Shown here: one piece after another, positions 1 through 21,589 of the stretch
How the letters are laid out: the number at the start of each line of letters is the position of its first letter
How positions within the stretch are numbered: position 1 is the first letter of the stretch
Origin: Oligoflexia bacterium
GTDB taxonomy: Bacteria > Bdellovibrionota > UBA1018
Reading direction: 5' to 3'
NCBI GenBank assembly: GCA_903898645.1
Contig: CAIUGE010000018.1
Location: 1-21,589, forward strand
Length of the DNA: 21,589 bases
Position numbers and translations under genes: made by a program
Notes under the pieces: generated by a model
What the model was told of the DNA's origin: nothing
The model's database searches: none
What the model saw: only the letters and a program-made list of their open reading frames with translations

Positions 1-146
1 TCATTGGCAGCAAGGTAGATGTTGAGGAGGGTTGTTTGATGGGAGCAGTGTGAGTCGAGAGGTTCAAGCACTGTTCTGAGAGAGGCCAGGGGTGAAATTC
101 TTCTGGCCCACTCACCACAAGTATTACAAGTGCACTTTCAAGTACT

Positions 147-5530: not shown

Positions 5531-5642
5531 TCACGTATTCTCCCAAAGAAACATGTGCCTACCATTTTCTTGGTTTAAAAGCACGGTCCAATTTTGCCTT
5601 TAAGCATTGACCCTGCTAGGCCTGGTGGTAGTCTTCTTGGTC
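5531..5642. promoter_or_regulatory. Divergent intergenic region, presumed to hold promoters for livHMGF (leftward) and the xer-like gene (rightward).
   Basis: Only a 112-nt gap separates the divergently transcribed livH and the ORF starting at 5643. No sigma motifs could be confirmed by eye. Confidence 0.3.
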
Positions 5643-6464
5643 ATGAGTAAGAAAATTCCAATGAGGCTAGCTATCAAGAGTTTTCAGGGGTTTTTGGAGG
5701 GTACCGGGCGTTCTGCGAATACGTGTCGCAATTATGTGCTCGATCTTGAGGCTTTCGCTGAGTTCTGCCCAACGATTGACCAGATCACAGACGGCGTCAT
5801 TGCTCTTTTCCGGGAAGCACTCAAAGCACAAGGTCTTGGTGCTAATACAAGGCGTCGCAAGCTTTTGACACTTTCGCTTTTTTTTAAATATCTTGCGCGG
5901 CGCAAAAAGATTGACCTTTTGTTCGCAAGAAAAATGCCAGCGCCACATAAAGTAGAGCGTATCCCAGAGACAGTACCGCTTGCTGATTTTAAAGCGGCAG
6001 TTCTCCAATTGCCACAAGGTCCTGTACGTCTCCTTCTTTGGGTGATGATTGAAACGGGCTGTCTTGTTAGTGAGCTGATTAAACTTCATCGTAATGACTG
6101 GGCCGTGCCTATTCTTGTGATTGATAAAGGGTGCTCTCGTGAGCGTACCTTGGTGCTTTCAGATAACATGTTGAGTAGTGAGCTTGAGTCCATGCCTCAA
6201 GGCAGTCTGTTTCCTGGGCGTACGTCTGTCGGATGTATGTCTGCGCGTGCTGTTGAGCTGGTTCTTGCAGACCTCTCTCCCCAACTTATTGGACATCATG
6301 TAACGCCTCGCGTTTTGCGCCATTCTGTTGTGCGTTTTTGGTTTGAGCAAGGGGTGGGTCAGGATGAGATTAAAAGGCGGCTTGGCTTGAAAAGTAACTA
6401 TGCTTTCAAAGCGTATGGCGCTCTTTTAGATCCAACTTTTAAAGAGCATCCAAGCCCGAAATGA
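5643..6464 (+). CDS. Xer-like tyrosine recombinase paralogue with degenerate catalytic residues (possibly inactive or variant).
   Basis: N-terminal SAM-like domain (FLEGTGRSANTCRNYVLDLEAF, compare LSxNTLxAYRRDL). In the C-terminal catalytic region ETGCLVSEL has Cys where the conserved Arg of GLRxSEL sits (TGT at 6060-6062). RVLRHS has Arg at the first His position of HxLRHS. The Tyr-containing KAYGALL aligns with QIYTHL. The ATG at 5643 is preferred over the TTG at 5607 given in the track. Confidence 0.6.
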   Translation: MSKKIPMRLAIKSFQGFLEGTGRSANTCRNYVLDLEAFAEFCPTIDQITDGVIALFREALKAQGLGANTRRRKLLTLSLFFKYLARRKKIDLLFARKMPAPHKVERIPETVPLADFKAAVLQLPQGPVRLLLWVMIETGCLVSELIKLHRNDWAVPILVIDKGCSRERTLVLSDNMLSSELESMPQGSLFPGRTSVGCMSARAVELVLADLSPQLIGHHVTPRVLRHSVVRFWFEQGVGQDEIKRRLGLKSNYAFKAYGALLDPTFKEHPSPK

Positions 6465-8251: not shown

Positions 8252-8970
8252 TGCAGAACTGGGGGGTGATTCAATTACCAGCGTTGCCGCTCAGTGCTGG
8301 TTTTTGTGAGCCGCAGGCATCTGATTTTCTTGAGCATGGTATGCGACTTGTGGAAGAAGCTCGCCTGTGTGCTGGATTTGATGGGCTGTGGATCGAGAAC
8401 TACAGCGATGCTCCTTTTGGTCCTCTCCATCCTGCGGCTATTGCTGCCTGCTCTATGCTTGTTGCAGCTCTCCGTGAAACCTTTGATCAGCAATTGGGCC
8501 TTTGGATCCACGGTGATGAGCATGCGGCTCTCGGTATTGCTTCAGTAACAGGATGCACAGCAATACGTATAAGTGTTCCATCGGCTTCTTTAGTACGCAC
8601 ACGTACACAACTTGGGGCTCGAAGTGTTCAGTTTTTTGCAGATATAGTGACGCGCCCTTGGAGTCGAACAGAACAGGAGCGTCTTGTTGTGACTATTGAA
8701 GAGCTCTATTTTCGTTTTCAGGCTGATGCCATCGTTGTACGGGGTCCTGGCTTAGGTCGTGAACCTCATGATGCATCTTTGGAGTGCATCTCTGAAATAG
8801 CTCGTCGGTACGGTATTCCAGTTTTTCTTGGCAGTGGGGCACAAAAGGATCGATTGCCCGTCTTTGCTCCGTTAGTAGATGGGGTTTTTTGGGATGGGGC
8901 ACTTCGTAAAAAAGGAGAGCTTGGTGCTCCTCTTGATCGAGCTCGGGTACGGCGTATACTTAAAACATGA
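8251..8970 (+). CDS. BtpA/SgcQ-family (TIM-barrel) protein.
   Basis: VIQLPALPLSAG … GFDGLWIENYSDAPFG matches the BtpA-family signatures (HLxPLPGSP … IENFGDxPF), as recalled. RBS AGGAAAG upstream. Confidence 0.55.
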   Translation: MQNWGVIQLPALPLSAGFCEPQASDFLEHGMRLVEEARLCAGFDGLWIENYSDAPFGPLHPAAIAACSMLVAALRETFDQQLGLWIHGDEHAALGIASVTGCTAIRISVPSASLVRTRTQLGARSVQFFADIVTRPWSRTEQERLVVTIEELYFRFQADAIVVRGPGLGREPHDASLECISEIARRYGIPVFLGSGAQKDRLPVFAPLVDGVFWDGALRKKGELGAPLDRARVRRILKT

Positions 8971-10154
8971 AGACCCTTGGTCAACTTCTTCTCCGGCGGT
9001 TATCTCGTAAGCCAAAAGGGCAGACAGACAAAGGGCGAACGCCAGCTTCACAGAAGAAGAAAAAACGGTCTTCTAAAAAAATCCAGCTTTCAGTTCCTAG
9101 TCCTCAGGCACAGACGGCGCTTACCCTGGTACCCGCTTTCCGCACACAGCAAGAGCAGTCGTCGCAGACCTTGGTTACAGGCGATCTGATACGGCCGCAC
9201 GATGATCTCAAGAAATGTATTGAGGCGTTTTTGTGCGATCAGCGCTCTCCGCATACCCGTAAGGCTTATGGGAAGGATCTGAAGCGCTTTGTGCGCTTTC
9301 TTCGTATGCGTCAGCACGCCTTTGGGCTCGAACAATTGACGCGCAGTATTGTGATTGCTTACAAAGAGTACCTTTTGGCAGACGGCCTCCAGGATACGAG
9401 TGTTGATCGGCATTTGGCGACGCTCAAGAGCTTTTTCTCATGGCTTGTAGATGATGGGATTTTGATGAAAAGTCCGGCTGATGGGGTGCGCTTTCTTAAT
9501 CCCAAGCGACTTTCGACAACTAACGGATTTACAGATGAAGAGGTAGTTCGTGTGCTGCAAGCACCTAATTTGCACGCACGGTCAGGCGCTATGCACTATG
9601 CTATACTTATGGTGCTTTTTTACTGTGGCTTACGGCGCAGCGAGGTGACGCAGCTACGAGTCTCGAGCATTGGCCTTGAAAAGGGCAAGCACCATGTGCT
9701 TCGGGTGCGAGGTAAGGGCAACCAGGAGCGGATGCTGGTGCTTTTACCTACTGTATACCATGCGATTTGTTACTATCTGACGCTCTCAAGGCGGACGCCC
9801 AAGCCAGATGAGTTTTTGTTTGCACCTATCAGAAATAATCGCACCAAGGTGCTTGCGAAGGGGATAGACCCATCTATGGTATTTTACATTGTTACCAAGT
9901 ATGCGAAAAAAGCTGGCATCCAAACGCGTGTATCACCCCATTCCTGTCGAGCAACGGCAATATCTAACGCTCGCGATCATCATGTGCCAGATCGCGCGAT
10001 CCAAGAGTTTGCTGGTTGGGCATCACCTGATATGATTACACATTATGATAAGCGCCGAACCTTGATTGAAAATGCAGCAGCCTGGAGTATCCTCTATGGG
10101 AGAAATGAAAGAGATCTTCCAACGATTCGTGAAGAAAGCGACACGCCAGCATGA
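8967..10154 (+). CDS. Site-specific tyrosine recombinase, XerC/XerD family (intact catalytic residues), with an unusual Lys/Ser-rich ~80-aa N-terminal extension.
   Basis: Core-binding domain motif HTRKAYGKDLKRF. Catalytic motifs: GLRRSEV (Arg I), RGKGNQERMLVL (Lys), HSCRAT (HxxR), GWASPDMITHYDKRR (Trp and Tyr). ATGA overlap with the btpA-like stop. Confidence 0.8.
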   Translation: MKTLGQLLLRRLSRKPKGQTDKGRTPASQKKKKRSSKKIQLSVPSPQAQTALTLVPAFRTQQEQSSQTLVTGDLIRPHDDLKKCIEAFLCDQRSPHTRKAYGKDLKRFVRFLRMRQHAFGLEQLTRSIVIAYKEYLLADGLQDTSVDRHLATLKSFFSWLVDDGILMKSPADGVRFLNPKRLSTTNGFTDEEVVRVLQAPNLHARSGAMHYAILMVLFYCGLRRSEVTQLRVSSIGLEKGKHHVLRVRGKGNQERMLVLLPTVYHAICYYLTLSRRTPKPDEFLFAPIRNNRTKVLAKGIDPSMVFYIVTKYAKKAGIQTRVSPHSCRATAISNARDHHVPDRAIQEFAGWASPDMITHYDKRRTLIENAAAWSILYGRNERDLPTIREESDTPA

Positions 10155-13351: not shown

Positions 13352-13792
13352 AAGATCTCCTTTGTCGGGAGGGTTATTAGCATGGAGTCAGTACGTATGC
13401 AAGAAAATTCTTCATTATTGTGCCATGCTGACAGCTTCCATGGATGATGTGGTAATTGGGCCGATAAAGCATTGGGGTCTTTTGAGGGACTTCTTTGTCG
13501 TTGTTGGATATCGATTTTAACATCAGAGAAGTTGGCGTCTCCTTGCATTATGTAATTCATCTGCTCGACCATGTTGCTTCAATACATGCTGACGTTTGAT
13601 CTTAGGAGTCGATGGTGTAATAAATTGTGTAGTTTTTTACATCTTCCCTCTGTCCAAGAAACATCGTCATGAGGCAAAAGAGAAGTTTCAGGCTGTACTT
13701 TAAAAAATAATCGCAAGGATATTCGTGAATCATCCATCAGTCTCTTGCGAGAGTTTTTTCGATGCACGGGGGGTATGACATAAAGCATTAGT

Positions 13793-13890
13793 GAGAGAAT
13801 CAGATTCATAAATGGGTCTCTTTGGTCGCATGAGTAGAGATGTGGAGGGTTTTGTAAAACTTAAACTCAACTGAAAAAGGGACGCACTTA
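13793..13890 (+). repeat. Copy A of a ~100-nt repeat containing a conserved 20-codon mini-ORF (13812-13874: MGLFGRMSRDVEGFVKLKLN).
   Basis: About 80% nucleotide identity to the reverse complement of 21445-21550. Shared blocks are ATGGGTCTCTTTGGYCGCATGA, GATGTGG, TAAAACTTA, TCAACTRAAAAWGGGAC, and upstream AGAATCAG. It lies 89 nt upstream of the 530-aa ORF. Confidence 0.6.
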
Positions 13891-13962
13891 TGTGTTCGGG
13901 TTGTTGGGTTTCATTGAACTCAACTATAGACAAAGTGCCTTTGGCAGGGTAAGATCGCGCCC

Positions 13963-15555
13963 ATGTATATGGGTTGGTATTTCTTAAGTGTTGTTTGTTT
14001 TTTTTCGTCCATTCCAAAATGGAGCCTTGGGTCGGGTGTCTCTGAAAAGGTGTCTTTAGATGAAGAAAAAAAAATTTCCCTTGAGCCTCGCGAAATATTG
14101 ACCCAAGTGCTTACGTTTCGTCGTTGTGATGAATTTTACATCGACTCTTTATATGGCATAATGCGTCATTACAGTAAGCTGGAAGAAGAGCTTCCGTTGG
14201 ATAAGGGCCTTCGCGTTGCGTTTTTTTCAAAACATTTTCGACAAAGAAGTTTTCGTGGAGATAGTACTCGTCTTGCAGCCCTTCGTGCAATCAATAGTGA
14301 CCTTGCTCTTTTAAAAGAGGTTCTTTTTAAGAAGAAGAGTGCATTAGACCTTCAGGAGGCGTACTATTCTTTTGAAGATATAATGAATGATTTAAAAAAA
14401 ACAGATTCAGAAATTAACGCTTCTTGGAACAAAGATCATCCTCTTTATATTTATTCTAACTATAATTTACTAAAAAGTCTTATTAGTTCATTCAAAAAAG
14501 AATATAAAGAAAATCTTCTTTACGACGACATTAAAATTCATGATAATTGCAAATGCGACGACTGCACCAAAATGCTTAAATTTTATATTGTACAATTAAA
14601 AACGGATGTTCGTAATTATTTGTTAGCATCTTTGCATGCAAAAATTAAACCTCTTGAAGCCCTTCTAAATACTTCTGATTCCGATCGATTTTCAAATACA
14701 GCATTCTTTAAGGAAAATGCTCCCTGTTTCGAATTTCTTGATTCTATGCCAAGAGCGTTGACTCGGCCACTTGAACCAGCGCTCATTTTAAAACCGCCAG
14801 TCGTCGTGCATAGGCGTGAAGCGCAAAGCGTTCCAGACAGCGTGCCCCCTGCTATAGAAAACTCCGATAAGCAGGACAGAAGTGGTGAACAGTGTTCATT
14901 AGAGGATGATTTTTTTGAAGTTGATGAGTTGGCGTTTGAGGAAGGGCAGTCCTCAGAATCTGAGGATGATATTTATAGTGTAAAAAAAGATCCTCAGTCA
15001 AAAGTAAAAAAGAAGCATAAACCATCTAGAAGGAAGGCAGCAGTAAGAGACTCTCAAAGAGTTAACGCGGATCGACGAGTGAGGGCTGGGTCGCAAAAAG
15101 ATGTCGAGGCGTATCAGAGTATAGCAGAATCTAGTCAGTCTCATTATGAACTTGTGTCGCCGTCGATTTTTCTTCCGGCACGTAGTATTGAGGTATTGAA
15201 GCATCTTGAAGTCAAGCCTTACTTGAGGCATGTTTTGATTAGTGACTATCTTAAGCTTCTTGATGACTTCATTCGATTTAATCTTGTTTGTAATAAAGGA
15301 CGATTAATTCAATCGTATTTTCAATGTAAAGCGCGGCTAGGGTCAGAATATTCTGACATACTACATCTTAATGGCGGTGAAGGTGAGTCAATTCGTATTG
15401 TCGGGACTCATGGGGTAGCAACGCAGCTCGTATTCCATTATCCTCACAGGGATTCAAAAGACGATATCCCTAAAGAGTACTTGCATTTTTTTATTCGACC
15501 ATTCAAAGAGCTTGGTGTTCAGTCTGACGCTATTACCGTTATTGATGATCGATAA
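13963..15555 (+). CDS. Hypothetical protein (530 aa) with an AT-rich middle section and an acidic-then-basic low-complexity linker. No recognisable domain.
   Basis: Long ORF with an ATG start. The linker region reads SLEDDFFEVDELAFEEGQSSESEDD…KKKHKPSRRKAAVRD. The C-terminal ~130 aa is not low-complexity (…ILHLNGGEGESIRIVGTHGVATQLVFHYPHRD…). Local AT enrichment at about 14340-14720. Confidence 0.5.
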   Translation: MYMGWYFLSVVCFFSSIPKWSLGSGVSEKVSLDEEKKISLEPREILTQVLTFRRCDEFYIDSLYGIMRHYSKLEEELPLDKGLRVAFFSKHFRQRSFRGDSTRLAALRAINSDLALLKEVLFKKKSALDLQEAYYSFEDIMNDLKKTDSEINASWNKDHPLYIYSNYNLLKSLISSFKKEYKENLLYDDIKIHDNCKCDDCTKMLKFYIVQLKTDVRNYLLASLHAKIKPLEALLNTSDSDRFSNTAFFKENAPCFEFLDSMPRALTRPLEPALILKPPVVVHRREAQSVPDSVPPAIENSDKQDRSGEQCSLEDDFFEVDELAFEEGQSSESEDDIYSVKKDPQSKVKKKHKPSRRKAAVRDSQRVNADRRVRAGSQKDVEAYQSIAESSQSHYELVSPSIFLPARSIEVLKHLEVKPYLRHVLISDYLKLLDDFIRFNLVCNKGRLIQSYFQCKARLGSEYSDILHLNGGEGESIRIVGTHGVATQLVFHYPHRDSKDDIPKEYLHFFIRPFKELGVQSDAITVIDDR

Positions 15556-15591
15556 AAATAGGTTAGAATTTTGTTCAAGAAAAGAATAAAT

Positions 15592-17229
15592 ATGATTCAA
15601 GAATTAGACGTTTTAGCTAAAGATATTAAGAAGATACGAATTTGGGATGCGCTTGTTTGGATTTTTGTTATTTTGCCAGTTATTACTGGAGGTGTATGGT
15701 ACTATTCTTCAAAACTCAAAATTGAGCTTGTTGATCCCGAAGTTACCGTTATCATTTTGGTTTTTGTGGCTTTTATATGGAAAGTTCCTTTGCAAAAGAG
15801 TTGGATATTTTTAATTCTGAAGAAGATGGGATTCTGCTGGAAAAAAAACATTAATAAAATGCCTGGGCTATTGTGGGCAGCAACAGCCGGTGTGAGTATT
15901 GTTCTTGGTTTTGCCTCTTTGAGGCGGCATTGGGCAATACATAGCTCGGCTTTTGACCTTGGTATTTTTACCAACACAATCTGGAATTTGACTCATGGCG
16001 GAGGTTATATAAGCTCACTGAAAGGTGGTCTTAATCTTTTTACTGACCATCAGTCTCCTTTGTTTTGGTTATTGGTACCATTTTTTACGCTGCTACCAAG
16101 ACCAGAGACATTGCTCGTTTTGCAGGCAATAGGATTGGCAGTAGGTGGTCCAGCAACTTATTGGTTAGGGAGGCAGTACGGCCTCGGTCAACGTAGTGCC
16201 ATACTACCTCTTTTGTATTGGGGTTACCTTCCTATGCGCGATGCAAATCTCTTTGATTTTCATCCAGAGGTATTCATGCTGCCTCTGTTTCTTTGGGCCA
16301 TTGTTGTGGCGCATAAAAAAAGCTTTTGGTCGGTACCTTTGTTTCTTGCAGCGCTTGGTGCAAAAGAATCTGCTCCCGCTGTTGCTTGTGGTATTGGGCT
16401 CGCTTGGATGTTTGGTGCAGCGCCTCGCGGTATGAAAAAAATGGGCGTTATGCTTTGCATTTTTTCAATGGTGCTGTTTGTTTTTGATACACAATGGGTG
16501 CCTCGCCACTTTGGTGCGCAGGACTATGCATACATGTCTCATTACAGTGATCTTGGTCATAATGTCTTTGAAATCATTTTGTCTCCTTTTATCTACCCAA
16601 AGTTATTTATAGATAGATTTTTTGGTCTTGCACAGTTCAGGTTCTTCTTCGGCACATTAGCTCCCCTCGGGTTGTTGCCTCTTCTGGGTTGGCCTGCATT
16701 TTTAGCTGCTATCCCTGGATACTGTATAATGTTTTTGAGTCACTCGAAGTTAGTTTTTGGTTTTCATTATGGCATTGAATGCTCGGTAGGTCTTTTTTGG
16801 GCACTGGCCCCCGCCCTGAAACGTTGGTTCTCTCTTCCGTGGATTATCTTTTGGTTCTTTGCTTTTATTGGGCGTAGCGAAATGTATGCTATAAGGTACC
16901 ATACTCCGGATACGCATGCTGTATGGTTTCGTCAAGTATTTCTTCCATGTGTTGATCCTCAGCTTTCAATTGTTGCAAGCGATGCTTTGGTTCCACATCT
17001 TTCAACTCGTCATTGGATAGGGGTCTTGCCGCATTTTGAGATCCCAGGCTCATGGGCGGCATGTGTTATTGTTGATACAGCATTTGCTAACTGGCCACTC
17101 GGCATTGAAAATGTCAAGAAATTACAATTCGAAGGATATACAAGAGAATACTCTTGTGGTTCTTTGACTGTGCTTCATCGTGATGCGTCGTGTTTGCGTT
17201 GCCAACCTCAGTGTGATGATGGTTCGTGA
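15592..17229 (+). CDS. Polytopic membrane protein, DUF2079-like (uncharacterised, possibly GT-C-related).
   Basis: At least 10 hydrophobic helices. The motifs SAFDLGIFTNTIWNLTHGGG, FTDHQSPLFWLLVPFF and LLVLQAIGLAVGGPATYW resemble my recollection of the DUF2079 family. The ATG at 15592 is preferred over the TTG at 15571. Confidence 0.5.
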   Translation: MIQELDVLAKDIKKIRIWDALVWIFVILPVITGGVWYYSSKLKIELVDPEVTVIILVFVAFIWKVPLQKSWIFLILKKMGFCWKKNINKMPGLLWAATAGVSIVLGFASLRRHWAIHSSAFDLGIFTNTIWNLTHGGGYISSLKGGLNLFTDHQSPLFWLLVPFFTLLPRPETLLVLQAIGLAVGGPATYWLGRQYGLGQRSAILPLLYWGYLPMRDANLFDFHPEVFMLPLFLWAIVVAHKKSFWSVPLFLAALGAKESAPAVACGIGLAWMFGAAPRGMKKMGVMLCIFSMVLFVFDTQWVPRHFGAQDYAYMSHYSDLGHNVFEIILSPFIYPKLFIDRFFGLAQFRFFFGTLAPLGLLPLLGWPAFLAAIPGYCIMFLSHSKLVFGFHYGIECSVGLFWALAPALKRWFSLPWIIFWFFAFIGRSEMYAIRYHTPDTHAVWFRQVFLPCVDPQLSIVASDALVPHLSTRHWIGVLPHFEIPGSWAACVIVDTAFANWPLGIENVKKLQFEGYTREYSCGSLTVLHRDASCLRCQPQCDDGS

Positions 17230-17820: not shown

Positions 17821-18321
17821 AATTTATAGCAAATATTGGCTTGTTGCGTTTGCCATTTGAAGACAGGCTCCATCAAGGTGTTATGTCGGCTTCGGCGCGG
17901 TCTATAGTAGTTGTGGGATGGGCCTGCTGTGAGTGCGTGGTAGCTCCATACACAGCAACCATGCCTATTGATCGTAAAACGTCTTAAGTCCCCGTCTGGA
18001 GTTCTGAGGCTAACTTGTTAAAAAAGGAAGACAAAATTCGAAAGATATGAACTTTTTGAGTATTTTTGTTCAAAATCGCGACGACAAAGAATTTTTACGA
18101 GTTAACTCGACGAGTCATTCCTGAATGTGACCCTCCCAGAGCGAATGACGCACTCTCATAGAGAATCGCTGCTAAAAAAGCGATCTCATTGCTCATAAAC
18201 ATTTTTTGTGGTAGAGCTCCTCGCATGAAGCATCTGAAGGGGAGGGGGGAAGTTTTTTGTTTATGAATGTTTCGTGAAAAAAGGAGTCTGCTGGTTTGAG
18301 ATGCTTTTTGAAAGGCAAAAT

Positions 18322-18927
18322 ATGCAGCTACTTAAAGGTCTTGTTCTGTGGAGTTGTATTGGTAATTATGCATTCGCCGTTTGTGAACACGAGAGAAGTG
18401 AGTACAAGGAATTTTATGATCTCCATGAGAAATTGTGCGCTGCATCTCAGGTTTGTAATATAGCAGGGAACGCGCTGGGAATTGGCTTTGCGATTCCCAC
18501 ATTCGGTCTGAGTTTTGTCCTTGGGGGTTTGGTGGGAGGCGTCCCTGGGTTAGCAGTTCACAATGCGCGCCGGATCAGAGATGAAAAAAAAGTAAATCTT
18601 GATCGTTGTGAAGCCCTTGCTGAGCAGGAGCGACAAGCGCGTCAGAATCAATTACAGCTTGATCTAGCTGCACAACAGCAGAGAGAAGTGCGGGTAGATA
18701 CTGTGCAAAAAAAATACGATCAGCAAATGATTCAAGCCGGAACTCAGTACCGAGATGCAGTTCAGCCTCTGATTCAGGGAATGGTAGATGAGGGCATCGA
18801 TACAACATTGCCTGAAGCGATTGAGGTTATTGCAGGGGCGAAAAATGATCTCACGACTGCCCTTAATCGTCAATTAGAGGAAATCAATAGTCATCGTCGT
18901 AGCGAGTTAGACCAGGCATCATTATGA
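18322..18927 (+). CDS. Membrane-anchored coiled-coil protein. It has an N-terminal signal-peptide-like segment, a ~42-aa bilobed hydrophobic domain (Inc-like) and a Gln/Glu/Arg-rich coiled coil.
   Basis: Preferred start ATG at 18322 (MQLLKGLVLWSCIGNYAFA…); the track's GTG at 18274 and the ATG at 18301 are alternatives. Hydrophobic block CAASQVCNIAGNALGIGFAIPTFGLSFVLGGLVGGVPGLAV (~18436-18560). Coiled coil EQERQARQNQLQLDLAAQQQREVRVDTVQKKYDQQ. The stop overlaps the next start as ATGA. Confidence 0.5.
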   Translation: MQLLKGLVLWSCIGNYAFAVCEHERSEYKEFYDLHEKLCAASQVCNIAGNALGIGFAIPTFGLSFVLGGLVGGVPGLAVHNARRIRDEKKVNLDRCEALAEQERQARQNQLQLDLAAQQQREVRVDTVQKKYDQQMIQAGTQYRDAVQPLIQGMVDEGIDTTLPEAIEVIAGAKNDLTTALNRQLEEINSHRRSELDQASL

Positions 18928-20663
18928 GTTTTGCAAAAGGTCTTATGCTTGCTCTCGTGGTGGCTCATGGCACCTGTGCTGCTGGAAATGAGGACCGTCC
19001 GCCTGTTGGGTGGTTGGAGGCGAGCATAGGTGGGCCATCAGCGCCCTCTGCTTCTTTTCAGAGTTTGGGTAATAGTGACATTAGTGCACTCTTTGGCGTC
19101 GGGCCGGATATAGCCGGCCCGCTCTTGCGTCATAGCCAAAACGCTGTTGCACGTGCAGAGAATAGTGAGCGGCAGATTCAACAGAGCATTGATGAGAGCG
19201 CTCGGCGTACAGAAGACAGGGGGCGTAGCGTAGCTGCACTGACTGATGAGATGCAAGGTCTCATCAGTCAATCAGTTGAGGATATGTTGCAAGCAAGAAG
19301 ACTGAACCGGGCAGTGGTTGATTTGAGTCAGGCGCCTTTTGTTGCAGAAGCAGATCTGCCTTACCAATTCCATTCGCCAGCCGGAGAATTTCATGAAGAA
19401 GTAGTTCAGCTTTATAGGGATTTTTATCAGATTGAGCCTCGATTTGGTAAGCAACAAAAAGCAAAAGAGATAGGGCTGATAGCAGTTGAAGAGGCTGATC
19501 ATGAATTTTTTCTAGGTGACAGAGCAAGTGCTGAGGCTTTTAAGGAGCTCAGCATAGGTTTGCTCGATGTGGCGGTTGGACTTGATCCTGTGACTGGGTT
19601 TGGCCGATCTGCCTATGAGCTTTTGTATGGAATAAATTTGATCACAGGTGCAAAGCTTGGTACCCTTGAGCGCAGTCTCGCATTTGTAGGGGTTGCGACA
19701 GCGGGTGGTTCGAAATCCATCACCCAGACCAGTAAGGTCATGTGGCGCATTTTTGAGCGCACAGGTCACCTTCTGCAAGATCGTCATGCAGTCCAGATAG
19801 CGATACAAGCAGGAGAGCGTCTCGTTGAGCGTGCGGGTCACTTGCTTGGCGCATGGCGAAGAAATTACAAGATAACGGCCATAGAGGATGCGGTTGCGGG
19901 GAATGCATTATTTCCTCACTCTCCGCCACCATTTCAGCCTGATACGCAGGTTGTGTTTTTCGAAACAGTGAAAGACAAGGTAGCAGCTGTCATGGGCACC
20001 GCTGCTGATGGAACCACAGGTACTTTTGCGCTGGACATTTTAACAGCAGGAAGAGTTGCGGTTGGTCCAGTAGCTGACGCCGGGTCTGCGGCTGATTATG
20101 TATTCCATAAAACTGAGGAACCTTTGACTATTGATGCTACTGCTGCATTTCAGCCTGATACTGGTGTTGGCACCTTGGGTCAGCCTGCGTTGGACCAGAA
20201 AGCGAAGGAGCTTCAGCAGGACCCTGGGTATCAGGCTTCTGGTGCTGGTATAGGCATGGGTACGACAGGAGATGCTCCGGTTGGTTCAGCGGCGGACGTC
20301 GGTTCTACTGCTGGACACGTGCTTCGTAAAGTGCCGGAACCAGTAGCTACGGATTCTGCTGGGCAGGCGGATGCAGTTAAGCCAACCTTTGAGCCTAACC
20401 CGAAGCACGGAGCAGGTCAGAAAGGCAGAGCAAACCCTGCACCTACTAATCCGCAAGAGACACTTGATAACTCAGTGAGAGTATCCGAAAATTCCTCGAG
20501 AAAAGTTGGGGCCGATAAGGCTACTGGGGAGTTTGACGTTTTTGATGAGCACGCGGCTGGGAAGTTCCACGGACATTCTAGGGTCTGGGAAGAGTTAACG
20601 GAAGCGATGAAGTCAGCGTTAATAAAAGAAAAAATCACTAACCATAAAGGCAAGATTCTATGA
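18924..20663 (+). CDS. Large secreted hypothetical protein (579 aa). It has a Sec-type signal peptide, an RHS-like DPxTG motif, Gly/Ala/Thr-rich internally repetitive region and a His-rich C-terminal ~85-aa module. Candidate toxin or effector.
   Basis: N-terminus MSFAKGLMLALVVAHGTCAAG. LDPVTGFGRS (DPVTGFGR at 19584-19607) resembles the DPxTGRF motif of RHS/polymorphic-toxin cores. Internal 16-nt direct repeat CATTTCAGCCTGATAC at about 19930-19945 and 20146-20161 (both encode FQPDT). C-terminal module from about 20403: KHGAGQKGRA…GEFDVFDEHAAGKFHGHSRVWEEL. ATGA overlaps on both sides. Confidence 0.55.
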   Translation: MSFAKGLMLALVVAHGTCAAGNEDRPPVGWLEASIGGPSAPSASFQSLGNSDISALFGVGPDIAGPLLRHSQNAVARAENSERQIQQSIDESARRTEDRGRSVAALTDEMQGLISQSVEDMLQARRLNRAVVDLSQAPFVAEADLPYQFHSPAGEFHEEVVQLYRDFYQIEPRFGKQQKAKEIGLIAVEEADHEFFLGDRASAEAFKELSIGLLDVAVGLDPVTGFGRSAYELLYGINLITGAKLGTLERSLAFVGVATAGGSKSITQTSKVMWRIFERTGHLLQDRHAVQIAIQAGERLVERAGHLLGAWRRNYKITAIEDAVAGNALFPHSPPPFQPDTQVVFFETVKDKVAAVMGTAADGTTGTFALDILTAGRVAVGPVADAGSAADYVFHKTEEPLTIDATAAFQPDTGVGTLGQPALDQKAKELQQDPGYQASGAGIGMGTTGDAPVGSAADVGSTAGHVLRKVPEPVATDSAGQADAVKPTFEPNPKHGAGQKGRANPAPTNPQETLDNSVRVSENSSRKVGADKATGEFDVFDEHAAGKFHGHSRVWEELTEAMKSALIKEKITNHKGKIL

Positions 20664-21004
20664 GTAACCAGTATGAAAAGCCTGGCGTCCTTTCCAAAGA
20701 AGAGACTCTCAGTATCCTGAATGGTAATAATACAGTGGAACAAAAGGTACATGCTCTTGTTGGATCAGTTAATGCCATTGAGGACCATGCGTGGTTGCAA
20801 GAGCTATGTTTGAGCTATGTAAACCACAAAGATAAGTGGATAGCAGGAGCAGCGATAAACGGATTGGGAGACATAGCTAGGATCTTTGGTCAGCTTGACT
20901 TGAAGCTAGTGTTGGACAAGCTTAATACCACTAAGTCAGAACGAAAAGACCTAGCAGGTAAGATCGAAGATGCCATAGATGATATTAAAACTTTCGTAAA
21001 GTAG
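20660..21004 (+). CDS. Small soluble hypothetical protein (114 aa), translationally coupled to the preceding large protein. Candidate immunity or chaperone partner.
   Basis: Its ATG overlaps the upstream stop (ATGA). No TM segment or signal peptide, mildly acidic, no recognisable motif. Confidence 0.45.
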   Translation: MSNQYEKPGVLSKEETLSILNGNNTVEQKVHALVGSVNAIEDHAWLQELCLSYVNHKDKWIAGAAINGLGDIARIFGQLDLKLVLDKLNTTKSERKDLAGKIEDAIDDIKTFVK

Positions 21005-21444: not shown

Positions 21445-21550
21445 TTAAGGGAGCATGTCCCATTTTTAGTTGATGCTAAGTTTTATAGTAGCTCCCACAT
21501 CCATATTCATGCGGCCAAAGAGACCCATTCCTGATTCTGTCTTTCTCTCT
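21445..21550 (-). repeat. Copy B (inverted) of the ~100-nt repeat with mini-ORF 21466-21528 (MGLFGRMNMDVGATIKLSIN).
   Basis: The reverse complement of 21466-21528 reads ATGGGTCTCTTTGGCCGCATGAATATGGATGTGGGAGCTACTATAAAACTTAGCATCAACTAA. That is 51 of 63 nt identical to copy A, with a matching upstream AGAATCAG block and downstream AAAWGGGAC. Confidence 0.6.
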
Positions 21551-21589
21551 CCAGCTCGATATTTTCGATCACCTCTTTGATTTGTCGGA

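Follow-up and report, generated by a model that had tools for sequence, protein, structure and literature searches.

What three overlapping genes accomplish for an Oligoflexia bacterium (Bdellovibrionota), and in particular whether they form a toxin-immunity system, a host-directed effector module or the remains of either, is the question raised by the locus described here. The genes lie on the forward strand, between positions 18322 and 21004 of contig CAIUGE010000018.1 (GenBank assembly GCA_903898645.1); the 21,589 nucleotides (nt) of this contig that were analysed are called the window below, and the three products are named P1, P2 and P3 in gene order. We consider it likely that the cassette, made of three co-translated parts, encodes a polymorphic toxin system that depends on Sec and serves bacteria in competing with one another. 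A first reading of the same DNA by a model, working from the letters and their translations (hereafter the original prediction), had proposed either a toxin-immunity or an effector-chaperone module, and its claims are taken up where the results bear on them.

Three overlapping genes and a probable toxin-immunity pair

The P1 open reading frame (ORF; 18322-18927, +) encodes 201 amino acids (aa) from its ATG, with a GTG at 18274 as an alternative start. It is followed by the ORF for P2 (18924-20663, +), a predicted 579-aa polymorphic toxin with a Sec signal, and by the ORF for P3 (20660-21004, +), a predicted cytoplasmic, HEAT-like immunity protein of 114 aa, of the CdiI (5T87_A) type. Both the P1/P2 and the P2/P3 junctions read ATGA, the stop codon of each gene overlapping the start codon of the next. 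The three ORFs and their overlaps are as originally described, and gene calls in other assemblies agree: an identical 579-aa P2 is present in three of them, within the same 201/579/114-aa trio. Since homologues of P1, P2 and P3 were all found elsewhere, we conclude that these are genes and not chance ORFs. A scan for promoters 5′ of P1 produced no convincing candidate, sites being fewer than in shuffled sequences.

The nature of the toxin is given by the C-terminal end of P2. Residues 506-576 are about 45% identical, in an alignment over 71 of 76 residues, to chain E of PDB entry 5T87, the ‘CdiA toxin’ of Cupriavidus taiwanensis, with an E value of 2.6×10−14 for full-length P2, 1.1×10−15 for the module alone (phmmer) and 2×10−18 for a four-sequence profile. 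The C-terminal toxin domain (CT) was placed at residues 485-579 (~95 aa; 20376-20660, +), its start being marked by F489-E-P-N-P-K-H-G496. The CT family comprises 732 representative proteins at E≤10−3. Among the 150 representatives listed, the match is at the C-terminal end or at most ~45 residues from it, in host proteins of 97 to 2130 aa, and among the long carriers are Rhs proteins, one VgrG-PAAR fusion and a further protein with a PT-TG pre-toxin domain. Every position conserved in at least 90% of these 150 proteins is kept in the window (H495, P507, L514, S517, R526, D531, H549-G550-H551, W555, L558, L566 and G576), with K527 replacing R, and because of this the module looks intact; R553, conserved in 89% of the family, is kept as well. 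The set formed by H495, R526, D531, H549-G-H551 and R553 suggests acid-base catalysis, for instance that of an RNase, and the CT is probably the lethal part of P2.

P3 matches the other chain of the same complex. Its AlphaFold model, obtained with a mean predicted local distance difference test (pLDDT) of 91.6, has six helices, and its fold and length match those of 5T87_A, which is the best structural match of the model; the protein contains no hydrophobic segment. With a profile of six homologues, the top PDB match was again 5T87_A (residues 1-112 aligned to 1-112, E=0.0057), a weak but full-length match that agrees with the fold result. As the CT matches 5T87_E and P3 matches 5T87_A, these neighbouring gene products have their counterparts in a single toxin-immunity complex of solved structure, one in each chain. 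P3 is therefore best viewed as a putative cognate immunity protein of the CdiI type, which, in producer and kin cells, would bind the CT and block it. Two further matches of P3 were set aside: the one to the caspase-1 CARD (E=0.005) is superseded by the fold result, and the one to RTP1_C1 merely reflects the HEAT-like fold. The original prediction of a secreted, polymorphic-type toxin with a separate C-terminal module, accompanied by an immunity protein, is supported by these homologies to a solved CdiA-CT toxin and, by fold and profile, to that toxin's own immunity protein.

The CT and P3 also travel together. In one locus (L011), a CT 80% identical and a P3 65% identical to those of the window are again joined by an ATGA overlap; the CT there ends a 400-aa ORF with a weak PT-VENN match, located 3′ of a 1398-aa haemagglutinin-repeat protein. 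Two more loci (L012 and L013) have a CT-P3 pair in which the CT ends a 223-aa protein, and in a fourth (L014) a start-less orphan CT fragment precedes a P3 homologue. In the loci examined (L011-L014), a 5T87-type CT was always followed by a P3 homologue.

The 5T87 pair is recorded in CDD as cd20695 (CdiA-CT_5T87E_Ct) and cd20694 (CdiI_Ct-like) (PMC9111745). In C. taiwanensis LMG 19424, the CdiA-CT/CdiI genes follow the same toxin-then-immunity order as P2 and P3. However, the two-partner-secretion domain, haemagglutinin repeat, VENN motif and CdiB partner of that contact-dependent growth inhibition (CDI) system are absent from the window cassette, where delivery would depend instead on a Sec signal, a PT-TG N-domain and the P1 partner. 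The immunity sequences are just ~20% identical, so that cross-protection between P3 and CdiI is unlikely. In Rickettsia, rCRCT-3a toxins were modelled on 5T87_E, and the rCRCA-3a antidote, weakly, on a TOG/HEAT domain (PMC9111745). Unlike the window cassette, these modules are remnants, small or degraded, in the vicinity of recombination hotspots (PMC9111745), and no match to CdiI could be made for their antidote, whereas P3 clearly matches 5T87_A.

The constant and variable parts of P2

P2 begins with a predicted signal peptide (residues 1-20, ...GTCAA|GNED; 18924-18983, +), and a comparable n-region, h-region and small-residue site are found at the start of every full-length P2 homologue. 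A helical, family-specific constant N-domain of ~325 aa follows (residues 21-345; 18984-19958, +), which ends with PPFQPDTQVV. Over residues ~1-351, P2 is 35-47% identical to its homologues; beyond this point the sequences diverge, and the homologues compared (P0002-P0004) have only residues 1-~350 in common with the window protein, PT-TG included. The PT-TG pre-toxin domain occupies residues 214-260 (19563-19703, +) and contains the invariant block G219-LDPVTGFGRSA-230. Outside PT-TG, the N-domain matched no known family. RHS, RHS_repeat, haemagglutinin, LXG, WXG, two-partner-secretion (TPS), VENN and DUF1020/MAFB-N gave no Pfam match in P2, nor was a CdiB-type domain present among the other large ORFs of the window that were scanned. 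Scans of metagenome and viral contigs with protein patterns taken from the P2 alignment found nothing.

Much of what had been read from the sequence of P2 holds: the signal peptide, the Gly/Ala/Thr linker and the distinct, His-containing C-terminal module are all present, and the architecture is indeed not a canonical RHS, CdiA or LXG one, no such domain being found. The motif DPVTGFGR (residues 221-228) had been called RHS-like and polymorphic-toxin-like; the motif and the second label are retained, while the first is dropped, as this is the PT-TG motif and not an RHS core. On the basis of its domains, the cassette belongs to none of the CDI, Rhs and LXG systems and falls within the PT-TG toxin/singleton group. 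According to a 2026 survey (PMC13483458), the ‘PT-TG toxin’ and ‘PT-TG singleton’ groups of PF14449 occur in diderms and their export route is unknown. In these groups, a PT-TG block lies 5′ of a C-terminal toxin and no known trafficking domain is present, as in P2. The well-studied PT-TG proteins are LXG or WXG substrates of monoderm type VII secretion, whereas P2 has a Sec signal and an upstream membrane partner.

The boundary between the constant and variable parts is best seen in three near-identical loci, L020, L021 and L023. Their P2 proteins are 97-98% identical over residues 1-315 and 46-52% identical from residue 316 to the end, and the gene downstream is 41% identical. This is a sharp, textbook breakpoint between a constant N-region and a variable CT, and it provides the C-terminal polymorphism, co-varying with the downstream gene, that the original prediction had proposed to look for in relatives. 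A constant N-region with a variable CT, an immunity gene that co-varies, and a CT that occurs on unrelated scaffolds and as an orphan are among the features by which polymorphic toxins were defined by Zhang et al. (2012, PMC3482391), and these three were found.

Relatives of P2 come from one Oligoflexia metagenome-assembled genome (MAG), which has three paralogues, and one Pseudobdellovibrio MAG; further relatives of P1 and P2 are on freshwater-type metagenome contigs. The loci of the Oligoflexia MAG are L003 (7405-8590), L004 (7385-7678) and L009 (7262-7543), and among the three P2 paralogues is a truncated one of 380 aa that lacks a P1. Behind the toxin gene of L003 comes a series of small ORFs from two unrelated putative immunity families (DUF7957-like, and one common to L009). 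Another P1-P2 pair (L005, 5411-7293; also L006) is located amid phage genes (large terminase, ParB-methyltransferase, RecU, AAA_24), with no recognisable immunity gene after it on the same strand. Most P2 homologues carry what we call the usual CT, followed by DUF7957-type or other small ORFs. This domain of ~130 aa, with the pattern WVRVH...G.(I/V)QY (for example L021, 1516-1905), has no Pfam or PDB relative and is itself an uncharacterised toxin domain.

In the window, the usual CT aligns just to 19821-20060 (tblastn), and ~35 residues from its start are kept. The stretch at 19959-20375 (+), delimited by tblastn, composition and internal repeats, consists of this remnant, to about residue 379, and then of a low-complexity linker rich in Gly, Ala and Thr; the Gly/Ala/Thr linker as a whole covers residues ~350-484 of P2. 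A 16-nt exact direct repeat, CATTTCAGCCTGATAC, is present at the end of the constant N-domain (19930-19945, +) and, 216 nt away, inside the linker (20146-20161, +), both copies encoding FQPDT. By our own estimate, chance alone would give ~0.002 exact 16-nt pairs in a sequence of 3.8 kb, and the repeat may be the recombination scar of a cassette swap. As part of the explanation that we hold to be the probable one for the whole cassette, P2 of the window would be a recombinant, the usual CT of the family and the DUF7957-type immunity gene that goes with it having given way to a CT/immunity cassette of the 5T87 type. The 585 nt between P3 and the contig end were found to contain neither a displaced CT nor a displaced immunity gene.

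Such a history could also have left a decaying or inactive recombinant, whose P2 no longer delivers a working toxin and in which selection acts on immunity, that is on P3, alone. The ~35 residues of the usual CT that precede the linker could be seen in this light, as could the 16-nt repeat flanking part of the remnant/linker region, and related loci do hold truncated paralogues (P0003) and orphan CT fragments (L014). However, the three ORFs of the window are intact and have kept both ATGA overlaps, every family-invariant residue of the CT is kept, and the identical 579-aa P2 is found in several independent assemblies. Flexible linkers ahead of CT domains are moreover common in polymorphic toxins. 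We regard decay as improbable, and retain a cassette acquired by recombination and still coding for a toxin.

A putative upstream membrane partner

P1 starts with a signal-like segment ending in AFA|VC, and a signal peptide is predicted at residues 1-19 (18322-18378, +), with cleavage at AFA|VCE as judged from the AXA motif. A17-F18-A19 and C21 are invariant in the alignment of the P1 family (10/10 members). After a short acidic stub, conserved in the family, comes a Gly/Ala-rich hydrophobic segment, delimited by hydropathy and family alignment at residues 45-79 (18454-18558, +), which includes IPTFG; its length is 24-36 residues across the family, and in the window protein it contains a glycine zipper, G68xxxG72xxxG76. 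It is followed by a conserved motif, N81-x-x-R84-I85-R86-D87-E88-K89 ... N92-L93 ... C96, and the family proteins are closed by a polar tail of ~105 aa (in the window, Q17, E11 and R10 among 116 residues). The signal-like segment, the hydrophobic block with IPTFG and the Q/E/R-rich tail correspond to the layout first proposed for P1, of which the coiled coil is not supported (see below). Cys21 (18382-18384) and Cys96 (18607-18609), both invariant in 10/10 members, flank the hydrophobic segment, and a disulphide between them, if formed, would turn this segment into a hydrophobic hairpin with both ends in the periplasm.

The P1 family amounts to 10 clusters among 5.8 billion proteins. No relative scored above threshold in Pfam, NCBIfam, PHROGs, PADLOC or PDB; HpsJ_fam, DUF4407, DUF1269 and WipB appeared below threshold, each in one of the ten members, and were treated as chance matches. 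A DNA pattern for the P1 motif matched five metagenome loci, and none was found in viral contigs. Where upstream DNA is available (L003, L009, L005/L006, L015, L016 and L020-L024), a P1 homologue lies directly 5′ of the P2-type gene in every locus, overlapping it or at most 50 nt away. P1 is also constant, with 98.6-100% identity among L020, L021 and L023. We infer that P1 is a non-polymorphic, exported and membrane-associated partner that accompanies the N-domain of P2.

A more distant arrangement was observed in L018 (379-2061; also L019), where a protein that resembles P1 in its N-terminal 40% only precedes a secreted protein of another kind, which has in common with a P2 homologue only the first ~80 mature residues (E=7×10−6). 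This suggests a wider family of pairs, each made of a P1-like partner and a secreted client, and hints that the co-dependent parts are the N-terminal half of P1 and the N-terminal ~100 residues of P2.

The layout of P1 had originally been compared to that of chlamydial inclusion-membrane (Inc) proteins, and the cassette can be read as one that an intracellular bacterium would direct at its host, or as an effector-chaperone module of such a bacterium, with P1 as an Inc-like protein, P2 as an effector acting on a eukaryotic host and P3 as its chaperone. A polar helical tail behind a hydrophobic block of ~35-40 residues is indeed common to P1 and Inc proteins, the ~35-aa block of P1 being superficially like the bilobed Inc domain, and Rickettsia genomes hold the same CT family (PMC9111745). 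P1 differs from Inc proteins by its cleavable Sec-type signal, its invariant AFA and its Gly/Ala-rich, zipper-like segment, and none of its homologues is chlamydial, all being linked to a toxin gene: Oligoflexia and Pseudobdellovibrio MAGs and the freshwater-type contigs are the sources of the P1 and P2 relatives. The signals of both P1 and P2 are of the cleavable Sec type and not of type III, P3 matches an immunity protein and not a chaperone fold, and the CT-P3 pair is carried on antibacterial scaffolds (CdiA-like, Rhs, VgrG-PAAR). The Inc likeness is abandoned for these reasons, the chaperone role of P3 is disfavoured, and a host-directed module seems to us very remote indeed; a system directed at other bacteria is the reading we pursue.

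For such a system, a precedent for the role of P1 exists in Neisseria, where mafA-mafB-mafI consists of an accessory gene, a toxin gene and an immunity gene (PMC5349182; PMC3482391). In both systems, an exported, non-polymorphic and lineage-restricted accessory gene comes first, the toxin gene comes second and encodes a signal peptide, a lineage-specific constant N-domain and a variable CT, and a cytoplasmic immunity protein is encoded last; a further likeness is that a genome can hold several paralogous loci as well as spare immunity genes. Gene organisation is all that is common, without sequence relationship: P2 has PT-TG and not DUF1020/MAFB-N, P1 is not a lipoprotein, its predicted cleavage being at AFA|VC, its glycine-zipper segment and polar tail are not MafA-like, and the lineage differs, the relatives being Bdellovibrionota. 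For MAFA acting with MAFB-N, Zhang et al. proposed the same anchoring or outward-helping role (PMC3482391, section 37; PMC5349182) that is considered here for P1.

A working model and its setting

In the model that we favour, which starts from the co-translation shown for P1, P2 and P3, Sec would export P1 and P2 across the inner membrane, as their signal peptides suggest. P1, held in the membrane by its glycine-zipper segment, would then bind the constant N-domain of P2 and either anchor P2 at the envelope or help it outward; this step is proposed because of the strict linkage of the two genes, the non-polymorphism of P1 and the MafA-MafB precedent. The N-domain of P2, with its PT-TG, would handle trafficking or presentation, followed by the flexible linker and the CT. 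The CT would enter the cytoplasm of a neighbour cell and poison it, as can be supposed from the CdiA, Rhs and VgrG-PAAR scaffolds that carry it. Finally, cytoplasmic P3 would protect the producer and kin cells by neutralising the CT, a step suggested by homology to the 5T87 complex.

A bolder version of the third step can be formulated, in which P1 together with the N-terminal ~100-350 residues of P2 constitutes a new two-component route for presenting or releasing Sec-exported polymorphic toxins in diderms of the Bdellovibrionota type. P1 would then be an oligomeric anchor or conduit specific to the N-domain of P2, possibly stapled by Cys21 and Cys96. We put this forward tentatively, as an idea that has a chance of being right but is probably not.

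The same features of P1 allow it to be given other functions, with the toxin-immunity pair left as it stands: P1 could be a protective factor, shielding the producer from a membrane-active P2 N-domain, or a holin-like factor releasing periplasmic P2. Glycine-zipper segments are typical of oligomerising or channel-forming membrane proteins, P1 is strictly linked to the constant N-domain and not to the variable CT, and one P1-P2 pair is located in a phage-like region. However, no similarity of P1 to holin, spanin or immunity families was found, no endolysin was seen beside it, and the invariant AFA signal-peptidase site and polar tail of 115 aa are more in keeping with a scaffold or anchor than with a small holin. 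We consider a protective or release function unlikely, and keep P1 as an anchor or helper of P2.

Several results weigh against the model as a whole. The role given to P1 is drawn from gene linkage and from analogy, and neither a lipobox nor any similarity to MafA was found in it. The coiled coil initially seen in its tail did not pass a crude test, a/d heptad enrichment being no better than in 2000 shuffles (p = 0.39-0.69). Concerning P2, the score of the window protein against Pfam PF14449 (PT-TG), 22.0 bits over residues 214-260 (E=1.6×10−4), is below the cut-off of 23.5; the assignment nevertheless holds by homology, because the aligned homologues all exceed the cut-off (P0002, 32.2 bits; P0004, 27.9; the L009 protein, 29.6; the L010 protein, 48.6) and the block GLDPVTGFGRSA is invariant in their alignment. 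The AF2 model of full-length P2, made from four sequences, gave helices with a pLDDT of 34.5, which is unusable. No Pfam model matches the CT, even at E≤10, and no biochemical activity of the 5T87 toxin family was found in the accessible literature, where 5T87 appears as a modelling target only and is absent from one structural review of CDI. Lastly, the chimeric allele of the window, with its stump of the old CT, could be less efficient than others, or inactive.

The remainder of the window is ordinary chromosome, with a Liv-type ABC transporter, Xer-type recombinases, a PMT-family glycosyltransferase, a flotillin, a DUF2079 membrane protein and a Tag glycosylase. At 41-116 (+), a group II intron was matched (Rfam RF00029, 50 bits for a gathering score of 40), next to an ORF without Pfam match (147-776). 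Two genes for recombinases of the Xer/phage-integrase type, the first with a weak match to the catalytic domain, lie less than 4 kb apart (5607-6464 and 8967-10154, +). The G+C fraction falls to 0.375-0.40 at 13500-16000, compared to 0.44-0.50 elsewhere, and in this stretch an ORF of 530 aa without Pfam match (13963-15555) adjoins the DUF2079 membrane protein. Downstream of the cassette, contigs of two other assemblies stop exactly at window position 21476, 472 nt past the P3 stop codon, and the coordinates of a third, for which coordinates only were available, imply the same stop. On the minus strand, the last ~110 nt of the window (21476-21589) read as the C-terminus of an ORF (...RQIKEVIENIELERERQNQEWVSLAA*). 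A boundary of a repeat or mobile element is suggested by these observations.

What is new in this cassette and what is already known can be told apart. Polymorphic toxins are known, as is the family of the toxic tip and its antidote, for which a structure has been solved; the original prediction of an undescribed system therefore stands for the delivery half, P1 and the PT-TG N-domain, and not for the toxin-immunity pair, which belongs to the 5T87 family. The novelty is the delivery half, in which a Sec signal and a PT-TG N-domain particular to this family are combined with a membrane partner that is strictly linked and has no annotated relatives. In the sections of the PT-TG survey (PMC13483458) that were consulted, no dedicated upstream partner like P1 is mentioned.

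For the toxin family, the cassette offers a natural example of a CT/immunity pair moving between CdiA-like and PT-TG scaffolds. Computationally, no HEAT-like small protein has so far been tied to the CdiI fold of 5T87 as clearly as P3 is by its match, which supports such proteins as immunity partners of the 5T87 toxins, an assignment that in Rickettsia rested on gene proximity alone. For diderm bacteria, the cassette is a compact candidate export route for PT-TG toxins, parallel to the unexplained pairing of MafA with MafB in Neisseria. If true, the two-component route would answer how PT-TG toxins exit diderms, and it might link these toxins to predation or to phage-borne spread.

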